From NCBI GenBank assembly GCA_963764725.1, contig CAVXTM010000007.1, positions 54,819-118,818 of the forward strand: a stretch of DNA of 64,000 bases, read 5' to 3'. Each line of letters starts with the position of its first letter. Positions within the stretch are counted from its first letter, which is position 1. This DNA comes from an uncultured Gammaproteobacteria bacterium. GTDB lineage: Bacteria; Pseudomonadota; Gammaproteobacteria; JACCXJ01. The position numbers are program-made. This document shows, piece after piece, positions 27,001-30,000 of this stretch.

Positions 27001-30000
27001 GATCGCCGATCGGGGCTGTTTTAGAATATATGATTCTAGTTTTCTTCCAATATTGCCAAATCCACCGAACTTGGGGATCGAACCAAGAGCTGGCAATCCG
27101 ACGGCACGTTCAATCTGTTCGCTACTCCGAAAGCCTGGGTCCAGCTCCTCGATGACGTATACAACAGTGAACGCAATAAACAGGGAAACGACGAAGGCCA
27201 GGGCAAGGATTAATTTTTTTCTCGGATGAGTCGGTTTGATGGGCACATCTGCATAAGAGATGACATGCGCATCAGCCTGCCGTGCCCCAAGATATTCTTG
27301 CGAGTTCGATTCCTTTGTACGCGTCAAGAAGGTCTCTAAAAGCACCTTATTCGCATCGGCTTCCGCTTGCAATGATCGTAATTGAACATCGCTTTCGTTG
27401 GACTTGGCCACCTGCTTCTCAAGCTCTCTTAGTCGTGACTGAAACGCATATTCGCGGGCGCTGGCAATATCAGCCTCGTGCTGCAATCCTCGAGAAATCT
27501 TACCGATTTCCGCCTCTATCTTGGTTTGCAAATCGCGCCTTTCAGCTTGTAGCTGCAGCATGGTAGGATGTCTTTCCCCGAGATCCTCGGAAAGCTCGGC
27601 AGACTTGCGCGCTAGCTCTGTTTCTTGTCCTCTGAGCGCCTGGATCAAACCAGATCCGAGTACTTCTGCAATAGAATCGGCGCTACCGTCCGCTGAAGTT
27701 AACCCTCGTCTTTGCTCTCTGAGGCGCGCCTGCGCGGCCGCTCTCTCCGCTCGTGCCTGGACTAACTGTGTGTTTAATTCAGAGATTTCCTGCGCCACCA
27801 AAGTCCCGTCGCGGCCTTGGATTAAACCGGCCTCCCGGCGGTATTTTTCTACTGCCTTCTCGGAGTCCTCAACTTGCTTACGTACCGCGGCAATACGCTC
27901 GTCCAGCCATTCGGTCGTTTGTCGGGCCGCCCCGAGCTTGTTTTCGATCCGCGCCCCAATATATAGGTCGGCAACAGCGTTTGCTATATTGGAAGCCTTT
28001 TCGGCGCCCTCTGACGCAAATGCCACAGTGATTACCCGCGATTGCCCCTTCGGAGCGACGCTGAGTTGTCCTAGAAAGGTATCAATGACCGCTGCTCGCT
28101 CACGCGCTTGACGTTGCGCATCGGACTCCGGCTCTTCTTCCGGAGAGCTAAACACCTGTGCCACTGTTTTCTTCAGTTGCTCGATAAACTCGGCAAATTC
28201 TGTTTTCGATTGCAATGCGGCGTTAAATTCTGGGTCTTGCACTAGTTTCAGCTGATCTACGGCTTTGCCCGCCATGCTACGTCCGAGAAGGACCTCGATC
28301 TCGCTGGCAATGGTCTGGGAATCCATAGGCAGATTCGGCATCACTTCCGGGATGCCGATGTTTACGCGTTCCTGGCCGTCAACCATGATCGCCGCTTCAG
28401 CCTCGTATCGTGGAGTCAACATGAATAAAACCACGGTCGTTAACGCCAGCAATGCGCCTACGACACCCATCAGTATCCATCTTCGCCGCCGTAGTGTAGA
28501 AAAAACGTCTGCTAACGAGATTGACGAGCTCGCGCTAACAAGTGCCTCACCAGAGGCCGCTTCATTGGACATCATCAAAGGCCGCCCGGGGTTATTGATT
28601 AACGACGATCCGGGATTGTTTATGGTAGTAATACCGCTCATGTCCTTATCTTCGCGCCGGCGCTTTACATGTAGCTCGCCGCTTTTGACCCGTCGGCGAC
28701 GCCAGGCCGAAATTTGTGCAGTGGAAATGCCTTCCCGATCGAAGATCTCCAGGACTTGAGTAACATTATTGCAACGCCCTACCTGCTTAAGAATCCGGCG
28801 TTCACGATCGGCATCGAAATAGCGACGCTCGTATTCCCCCTCCGGCGCGTTATCGTCTTGCGGGAAGTCTTCTATTGAGTCTCCAAGGGCTTGGAGCAGG
28901 GAATGCAGCTCGTTAGCCTCTGGTCTAACAGCTTGGCGCTGGATACGTCTTATTGTGTCGGCAAGAGATCGGAGGAGGGAACGAGATGCCGTAGCCACGG
29001 GCGCATTATCCGGTCGCGGAGTATGCTCTATCGATTCGGTCACAAAGGCATCCGTGATCTCATGCATAAACGCGTCTATGATCGAACTCTTTGAACCAAC
29101 CTCTTTAGGTCTGCCATGCCGGCGCCGCCAATGCCCGACTTGGGCAGTTAAAACACCTTGTTTATCAAGTAGTTCCACGATCTGACCCGCATTCGTGCAG
29201 CGCTCAATCTCCGCCAGAAGGCGGTGTTCGTTCTTCAGGTTGGAATAGGGCAGCTCGTGTTCGGCGGGGTCTTCATTCTCGGGCGTGCCATCCTCTTGCG
29301 GGGAATCTTCGATTGATTCCGTAAGAAATCGGCGCAGGGAACGAAGTTCCTCAGCCTCACGTGGGTTATCGTCTTCCGGGATCCGTGCTATTGATTTGAT
29401 AATGGCTCGGAGCAGAGAACGGTGTTCTTTAGCCTTTGGCAGGTCGTCTTCCTGCAAGCTATGTCTTGTTGATTCCGTCATAACTGCCTCTATTCTCAAA
29501 CTTTTAGTGCTATCCCGCTACCCTTATCACGAATTGATTCCGAAGGCCTTGCTTCTTTCCAATCATCAATTTCCTCTTGTAGTGGGCATGCGTCCGGGTA
29601 ATACCCTCGCAAAAAAGTATATACGCCTTTTCATGCGTACGATTCATATGATTCCACTCGAGGCGCCCCCATCGCCAAGGGCAAAGGATTGCAGACTGCT
29701 GTGTGCGTTTGTGCCTTCCATGTTCTTACCCCATGTCCGTGCGAGGCGCTGACGGCCGTTTTTCAATGGGTGCGGAGCGAAAAGATAAACCTTCTTGCCC
29801 GCGTTGCAAGGACAGCAGATCCACTATCCTAAGGTATTAAACATACTAGAGCCTGATCGGGTTCAGATGTCAATAGTGGACTACAAATACCTAACGCAAT
29901 AAGCTGTAACCGTTAGCACTTACGGCCAATCCGGCGTGCGTTAACGGCGCGAAAACGATACCGGGGCCGATTTATTCGGAGAAGCATCGCTTCAATAGGG

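Follow-up and report, generated by a model that had tools for sequence, protein, structure and literature searches.

Wzc-type tyrosine kinases act as central switches in the production of capsule and exopolysaccharide, and how their state feeds back on expression is poorly understood. Wzc works as an oligomer. In insertion sequences (IS) of the IS3 family, OrfA is the transposase regulator, with a helix-turn-helix (HTH) that binds the element ends and a leucine zipper that forms a dimer, and in ToxR/CadC/TcpP-type membrane regulators an OmpR-type winged helix is combined with a sensor domain. PMC6333020 describes YabT of Bacillus subtilis as a membrane-anchored protein kinase activated by DNA binding, and PMC4007543 assigns to the bacterial tyrosine kinases (BY-kinases) many protein substrates, DNA-binding proteins included. 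Here we analyze a wzc gene in a 64,000-nucleotide stretch (the window) of contig CAVXTM010000007.1 (positions 54,819 to 118,818), from assembly GCA_963764725.1 of an uncultured Gammaproteobacteria bacterium. We propose that this gene probably encodes a single translated Wzc/GumC-type co-polymerase and autokinase whose cytoplasmic N-terminus gained about 300 residues when the 5′ part of an IS3-family orfA was captured.

The core of the protein is, as judged from its sequence, an ordinary GumC/ExoP/Wzc-type member of polysaccharide co-polymerase class 2a (PCP-2a), because it matches Wzz (PF02706, residues 326–417 of P0001), GNVR, and the TIGR01007 autokinase model and carries Walker-type strings and C-terminal tyrosines. 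A Pfam search of the 1059-aa TTG-started translation placed Wzz, GNVR, and the P-loop domain all within residues 326–983, with an AAA_31 match to the kinase part (35.9 bits), and found no family in the first 325 residues. The Walker-type strings in the translation are LEGKT, VLIVDADLR, and LVILDSPP, which we take to be Walker A, A′, and B, and four tyrosines lie within the last 22 residues. Hydrophobic stretches read by eye in the translation would provide the two membrane segments expected on either side of a periplasmic loop. The NCBIfam equivalogs for Escherichia coli Wzc and Etk scored far below their cut-offs (NF008568, 164 versus 1068 bits; NF007350, 151 versus 1248 bits), and TIGR01005 was also below its own (339.5 versus 411.7 bits). 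Ordinary Wzc-type relatives (112 rows listed, ≤48% identity) are 541–813 aa long. Six aligned outgroup Wzc proteins start about 30–45 residues before the first hydrophobic segment, between about residue 290 of the window protein and a Met-Met pair at residues 303–304, the shortest (P0031) at the Met-Met itself, and the window protein keeps this pair at the ancestral start position.

The residues that precede this core are organized as a duplication. The sequence-only reading, an earlier description made from the DNA letters, had taken the extension to be two copies of a module of about 140 aa, and we found that the two modules are 41% identical across 131 residues (BLASTP, E 2e-31), in agreement with that claim. 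At the DNA level the copies are spaced 438 nt between modules and 78 nt within a module. The duplicated unit appears to have included the start codon, because the GTG that opens module 2 (VTES) corresponds to the ATG that opens module 1 (MTES). Most pairs of the 26-aa units within a module are alike beyond chance: the observed score was reached by 2 of 2000 shuffles for units 1 and 2 of module 1, by 1 of 2000 for its units 1 and 3, and by 0 of 2000 for units 1 and 3 of module 2. The middle unit of module 2 is weak, with 74 of 2000 shuffles reaching its score against unit 1 and 159 of 2000 against unit 3. Tandem Repeats Finder reported no array in the extension, where the DNA sequences of the repeats have diverged too far.

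Each module combines an acidic leader (net charge –10 in module 1 and –7 in module 2) with a basic three-helix part (+4 and +8). AlphaFold2 (AF2) models of the whole extension (from a 7-row alignment) and of module 2 (from 21 rows) agree on two long predicted helices followed by three short ones per module, at residues 11–32, 40–58, 82–93, 98–107, and 112–122 of module 1 and residues 14–37, 42–58, 78–89, 94–104, and 108–121 of module 2 (module numbering). The pLDDT (the model's per-residue confidence) was about 70–80 in the helices, and the acidic connectors were disordered. HTH-like segment 1 retains C, G, and WRR; across both module copies and the OrfA comparison set the turn Gly and the W and RR of the third helix never vary, and the Cys hardly does. 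We additionally considered the tyrosines of the extension as conserved phosphorylation sites and rejected them: across the seven-genome alignment Y78 and Y217 are variable or deleted, and L005 has Phe in place of Y221.

The sequence-only reading had also derived the C-terminal segment of each module from the HTH of an IS3-type OrfA, and this was borne out as a remote homology by profile alignment, by protein searches, and by OrfA matches in genomes. An hhalign comparison of 14 modules with seven OrfA-type proteins, all seven of which match HTH_Tnp_1 at E ≤0.01, gave 94% probability over 67 columns (E 1.3e-7). A phmmer search of 1.84 billion representative proteins returned three matches: the clade Wzc P0003, P0004 (109 aa, E 1.2e-4), and P0005 (212 aa, E 5.4e-4), the last of which passes the Pfam cut-off for HTH_Tnp_1 (31.8 versus 24.1 bits). 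Residues 29–115 of module 2 are colinear with residues 42–132 of P0005 (BLASTP, pairwise E 1e-11), so that two leader repeats are covered besides the HTH; a search for loci related to P0005 recovered none.

Residues of about 180–270 matched small reading frames of related genomes (E 1.7e-5 to 8e-3), several of which precede an integrase-type OrfB, and HTH-like segment 2 matched IS3-type OrfA frames elsewhere in sequence and profile searches (E 5e-7 to 8e-3). When the 14-module profile was run over 400 genomes of the class, frames outside the genus were found in seven genomes, in six of them via columns 67–130 only; five places in G127 and two in G352 matched. The best of these six (L028) is a 162-aa OrfA overlapping a 356-aa OrfB, which scored 171.9 bits against the NCBIfam IS3 cut-off of 160. 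A separate match to the leader columns (L033; G084 contig 33, 4394–4540, E 4.4e-4) lies inside an 1847-aa frame of a distant class member and is probably due to chance. The ESM Atlas gave scores of at most 0.79, which serve as leads only, and its named rows were HTH_Tnp_1. The extension matched no Pfam family at E ≤1, either alone or within the whole protein, and the only NCBIfam hint for the extension alone was an IS66 TnpA model (E 0.0022). A PDB sequence search with the module profile gave a chance match only (E 0.55). Taken together, these comparisons show a genuine though remote likeness between the C-terminal segments and IS3 OrfA.

In the joint alignment (A4) the modules end right after the HTH, whereas the coiled-coil is still covered in five of the seven OrfA rows (P0004 and L012 stop before it). 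Module 1 is followed by module 2 and module 2 by Wzc, with no OrfB after either. The genome holds 15 matches to the rve domain of DDE-type OrfB proteins, none of them on the window contig, and it contains no second copy of the module, which occurs at one locus only, or of the wzc upstream region. Thus the extension is, on present sequence evidence, the captured 5′ fragment of an orfA rather than an insertion sequence, because a leucine zipper, an OrfB, and further copies are all missing. The captured piece would have consisted of the start codon, the acidic helical leader, and the HTH, without the zipper and OrfB, and would have undergone tandem duplication as a unit of 438 nt, start codon included, and in-frame fusion to wzc. 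A locus elsewhere in the genus has a related layout: at 1069–2907 of L044 (G005 contig 3, an unpublished genome) a 612-aa frame opens with an IS3-OrfA-like HTH fragment and continues into a host gene with a by-eye likeness to a HAD hydrolase plus a methyltransferase, and this would be a second orfA remnant in frame with a host gene, or possibly just an over-long frame.

We found that the extension and the core share one conserved reading frame. On the minus strand the frame is open from 29499 to 26320, its best start is the ATG at 29481–29479, and ORF 26320–29481 comprises the extension, a linker, and the Wzc/GumC-type PCP-2a tyrosine autokinase; the NCBI annotation of the contig gives an identical 1053-aa product (P0021). 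The 15-base GAGG-ATG block TAGAGGCAGTTATG is invariant in all six aligned congener upstream regions and is also present in the short L003 flank, and upstream of it the congener sequence is variable, with large insertions. The extension is present in G000 and in six of eight congeners (84–88% identity) in stop-free frames of 1058–1075 aa, and was not found in G002 or G007 (both 89% complete). The same loci are the only close orthologs of the Wzc core (90–95% identity), the family's other Wzc-like genes being 25–29% identical. Public proteins of the clade are 1040–1054 aa long, with at least 11 distinct sequences in one frame each. The in-frame fusion that the sequence-only reading had claimed is thus seen as an open frame in seven species-level genomes, and a stop codon between the extension and wzc occurs in none of the seven and in none of the at least 11 public proteins. 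The internal start that had been suggested at 28641 (AAGGAC-ATG) fared less well: the sequence is present, with its AGGA core ending 1 base before the ATG, but four public relatives (P0003, P0015, P0017, and P0022) have Arg in place of the Met, so that this start is no conserved trait of the clade. A short isoform from this ATG is thereby ruled out as a conserved feature.

We considered whether the single frame might instead be an assembly artefact or two separate genes, with a stop or frame shift hidden in the window assembly, and regard this as very improbable. Four public proteins (P0006, P0009, P0007, and P0010) do end in shifted tails inside the extension, and no sequencing run contained much of the window strain's own sequence (the best share of its words in the indexed runs was 0.20), but seven independent species-level assemblies and the at least 11 public proteins of 1040–1054 aa keep the frame. 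The Wzc core is also broken on all three pairable contigs (P0006 with P0144, P0007 with P0028, and P0017 with P0019). We read the broken versions as error-rich assemblies or decay of the whole gene rather than loss of the extension only, because the core is broken on the same contigs. Several public assemblies of the clade carry multiple frame shifts along the entire wzc, in extension and core, which calls for caution about their base-level quality. In other samples, a 13-kb contig of run X3 covers 28400–29542 with 59 substitutions and no gap, and the 12 best-supported indels listed (of 44) in contigs of other samples all fall in the intergenic 29616–30085, with none in 28642–29481. Contigs from the RNA-library run X9 span 28843–29128, 29234–29393, and 29424–29645, although such contigs are no proof of transcription or of a transcript end. 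Runs labelled cave metagenome contain relatives of the window stretch.

Among the seven DNA sequences, the extension differs by indels of 1, 3, and 9 codons only, all in frame. Its dN/dS was 0.40 (bootstrap 0.30–0.55, with 0 of 500 replicates ≥1), compared to 0.30 for the core (0.23–0.39), values that derive from 21 non-independent pairs. The leaders (0.38) and the HTH parts (0.42) gave similar values, the HTH2 region (aa 216–280) gave 0.29, and the linker (aa 281–325) gave 0.53. These ratios indicate that the extension is under purifying selection at the amino-acid level. The duplication also appears much older than the species, with both HTH signatures surviving, because the copies are 41% identical compared to 84–88% between species.

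An alternative for which these data matter is that the extension is a tolerated relic: an IS fragment would have landed before wzc and replaced its start and promoter, and the residues would stay open only because translation begins there, with no activity of their own. Several features fit a relic, namely the confinement of the extension to one tight clade, the low model confidence and long disordered acidic stretches, the missing direct Pfam match, the relaxed ratio of the HTH1 region (below), a linker whose acidic part differs in length among relatives, and the congener OrfA fragment at L044 that likewise runs into an unrelated gene's frame. We nevertheless consider a relic unlikely. The upper bound of 0.55 on dN/dS holds for leaders and HTH parts alike, copies that are only 41% identical both keep the OrfA-type C, G, and WRR signature, which argues for an old duplication both halves of which survived, and the Met-Met at the ancestral start position is still there.

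Several results weigh against the proposal of a captured and retained orfA fragment with DNA-binding-type segments. PF01527 (HTH_Tnp_1) misses both HTH segments even at E ≤10, and of 12 matches to this model in a scan of the genome (E ≤0.1), none lies in the window wzc gene. The mean pLDDT of the models was modest (58 for the extension and 65 for module 2), and Foldseek searches with the whole-extension and module models gave no match at E ≤0.001 and no HTH match. In a VIA-align comparison with 48,161 chains the best Z, 7.3, stayed inside the background that the tool gives for helical models, and nearly all listed rows fell on a generic hairpin at residues of about 1–70, so that the HTH part was barely sampled. 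The HTH1 region (aa 81–135) has a relaxed dN/dS of 0.74, with few changes, and frame maintenance by itself could stem from the dependence of Wzc on the upstream start. Three of the seven sequences in the selection test (G001, G005, and G008) come from unpublished genomes; the published genomes G003, G004, and G006 and the public proteins give the same picture. Public fragments P0006, P0007, P0009, P0010, and P0017 are frame-shifted inside the extension. Finally, no binding site, palindrome, or IS end beyond chance was found in 29482–30214, where the sole inverted pair is 15 nt long, 80% complementary, and separated by 503 nt.

Within the 1.84 billion representative proteins, Wzc with the extension occurs in this clade only. 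The nearest Wzc proteins outside it (≤48% identity) are without the extension, and all 11 module-profile matches of at least 257 aa carry a Wzz domain. As far as sequence can tell, the protein belongs to the PCP-2a BY-kinases and adds to them an architecture that our searches did not find outside the clade. A full-text literature search of an open-access library found no earlier account of such a fusion, and in the part of PMC7485978 that concerns an N-terminal extension, the extension belongs to the kinase domain and not to the whole protein. One public protein stands apart: residues 4–53 of P0145 (848 aa, on a 5918-base public contig) match the tail of module 1 and the first repeat of module 2 at 80–88% identity, and the rest is a quite different Wzc-type protein that is 25–29% identical to the genus Wzc. 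P0145 is either an assembly chimera or a product of recombination.

As to what the extension does, we consider it possible, with some doubt, that the two basic HTH segments still bind nucleic acid. In that case the membrane-bound Wzc oligomer would display two DNA-binding heads per protomer at the inner membrane face, and the tandem copy may stand in for the dimer that the lost zipper would have formed. The export machine could then tether DNA or regulate it, its own divergent promoter region being the simplest candidate, as the sequence-only reading had suggested, and the acidic leaders may be intramolecular shields. A more specific version seems unlikely to us, in which the co-polymerase is a membrane-anchored DNA-binding protein whose HTH heads bind the divergent-promoter core at 29687–29888 or other sites, with export assembly or phosphorylation state feeding back on transcription, or with DNA switching the kinase on, as is reported for YabT.

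The extension could also be a protein-interaction or regulatory arm and not a DNA binder, with hairpins and a degenerate HTH that dock on the kinase ring, a phosphatase, or the initiating transferase and tune oligomerization or substrate choice. The leaders are predicted helical hairpins, which are common interaction modules, the extension should share its side of the membrane with the kinase domain (from known Wzc topology and the RRRR before the first hydrophobic segment), and BY-kinase substrates are many and include DNA-binding proteins (PMC4007543). However, the residues best conserved across the copies and OrfA sit in the HTH and not in the hairpin, and the HTH parts and the stretch that follows are strongly basic (net +4 and +8). 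We therefore regard an interaction arm as rather improbable, and continue to favor a captured OrfA fragment whose HTH segments may have kept their original type of function.

Table 1. Coordinates (window numbering) of the wzc gene, the parts of its product, and the adjoining features.
Feature	Position	Strand	Basis or remark
Whole CDS, 1053 aa	26320–29481	–	ATG at 29481, stop codon 26320–26322; ORF list and translation
Shine-Dalgarno-like GAGG	29487–29490	–	5 nt before ATG 29481
Module 1, aa 1–146	29044–29481	–	Acidic helical leader, three-helix segment, and 17-aa tail
Three 26-aa (78-nt) units, module 1	29248–29481	–	29404–29481, 29326–29403, 29248–29325; 78-nt DNA spacing and shuffle tests
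HTH-like segment 1, aa 82–122	29116–29238	–	Three short predicted helices; aligns with IS3-type OrfA
Module 2, aa 147–280	28642–29043	–	Begins GTG (VTES), matching module 1 ATG (MTES)
Three 26-aa units, module 2	28810–29043	–	28966–29043, 28888–28965, 28810–28887; middle one degenerate
HTH-like segment 2, aa 224–267	28681–28812	–	Basic stretch onward to aa 280; AF2 helices; IS3-type OrfA matches
Linker and original Wzc N-terminus, aa 281–334	28480–28641	–	Contains ATG 28641–28639 (non-conserved) and conserved Met-Met 28575–28570
First hydrophobic (putative membrane) segment, aa 335–355	28417–28479	–	By eye in translation; RRRR just before
Wzz (chain-length determinant) domain	28249–28524	–	PF02706, 49.6 bits versus cut-off 25.5
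GNVR domain	27154–27375	–	PF13807, 30.1 bits versus cut-off 27.7
Tyrosine autokinase domain, then C-terminal tyrosine cluster	26410–26997	–	TIGR01007, 113.9 bits versus cut-off 108.05
Divergent wzc/sugar-transferase intergenic region	29482–30214	.	Alignment A5
Initiating sugar transferase (WbaP/WcaJ-like), divergent	30215–31657	+	PF02397, 219.6 bits; PF13727, 106.1 bits

The intergenic region between wzc and the divergent sugar transferase contains a core (29687–29888) that hardly varies among six congeners and is better conserved than the adjoining coding sequence. In the minus-strand sense this core reads TTGACA (29873–29868), a 19-nt spacer, and TAGTAT (29848–29843). Rfam had no match in 29400–30300, and a consensus promoter scan reported no site in the intergenic region; the sole site in the span scanned, at 29034–29005, lies inside the extension, and the count was below the shuffle mean. 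A terminator-like hairpin with a T run (29640–29621, minus strand) lies about 140 nt ahead of the start codon, within what is presumably the wzc leader; it is present in five of six aligned congeners and may be a leader attenuator.

The genes around wzc lie in an island of low GC content at about 26000–36000 (0.48–0.55, compared to 0.58–0.64 around it), which holds wzc, the Bac_transf transferase, an epimerase, a nucleotidyl transferase, an alanine racemase, and an RmlC-type epimerase. Directly downstream of wzc, a 243-aa ORF (25464–26195, minus strand) had no Pfam match at E ≤1e-5 and shows by eye several histidine-rich motifs like those of membrane fatty-acid hydroxylases and desaturases.

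A natural fusion of a BY-kinase to DNA-binding-type domains would be a directly testable case of coupling between export and expression, and if the DNA-binding reading is true, the protein would be a one-protein link from capsule or exopolysaccharide export to gene control, built from a domesticated insertion-sequence fragment. The locus would also be a clean bacterial case in which a transposase fragment was doubled, joined to a host gene, and then maintained by selection. Even an inert extension would show that IS remnants remodel the 5′ ends of host genes.

Compared to described systems, the window protein combines features that are otherwise found apart. With the ToxR/CadC/TcpP-type regulators it shares the order of a cytoplasmic N-terminal DNA-binding-type domain, a membrane pass, and a periplasmic domain. 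The likeness is in layout only: the window protein has no OmpR-type winged-helix match in Pfam, and its periplasmic part is a co-polymerase, after which come a putative second membrane pass and a kinase. YabT offers a precedent for a membrane-tethered kinase with a DNA-binding element beside the membrane, but it is a Ser/Thr kinase of the Hanks type that carries a basic juxtamembrane motif instead of an HTH, and it is not known to act in polysaccharide export.

The modules and IS3 OrfA (PF01527) share a colinear order of leader, R-R-x-F motif, helix, conserved Cys, helix, REG, helix, and WRR, and the nearest relatives of the modules outside the clade are OrfA genes followed by an rve OrfB. Unlike OrfA genes in IS3 elements, the window modules have no leucine zipper, OrfB, detected ends, or further copy in the genome, fail the Pfam model directly, and are duplicated and fused to a membrane protein. 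The closest likeness is to Wzc, Etk, GumC, and ExoP, with which the window protein has in common the Wzz and GNVR domains, the P-loop tyrosine autokinase, the Walker-type strings, and the tyrosine cluster, in a gene that adjoins an initiating sugar transferase and nucleotide-sugar genes; it differs from them in carrying about 300 additional cytoplasmic residues.

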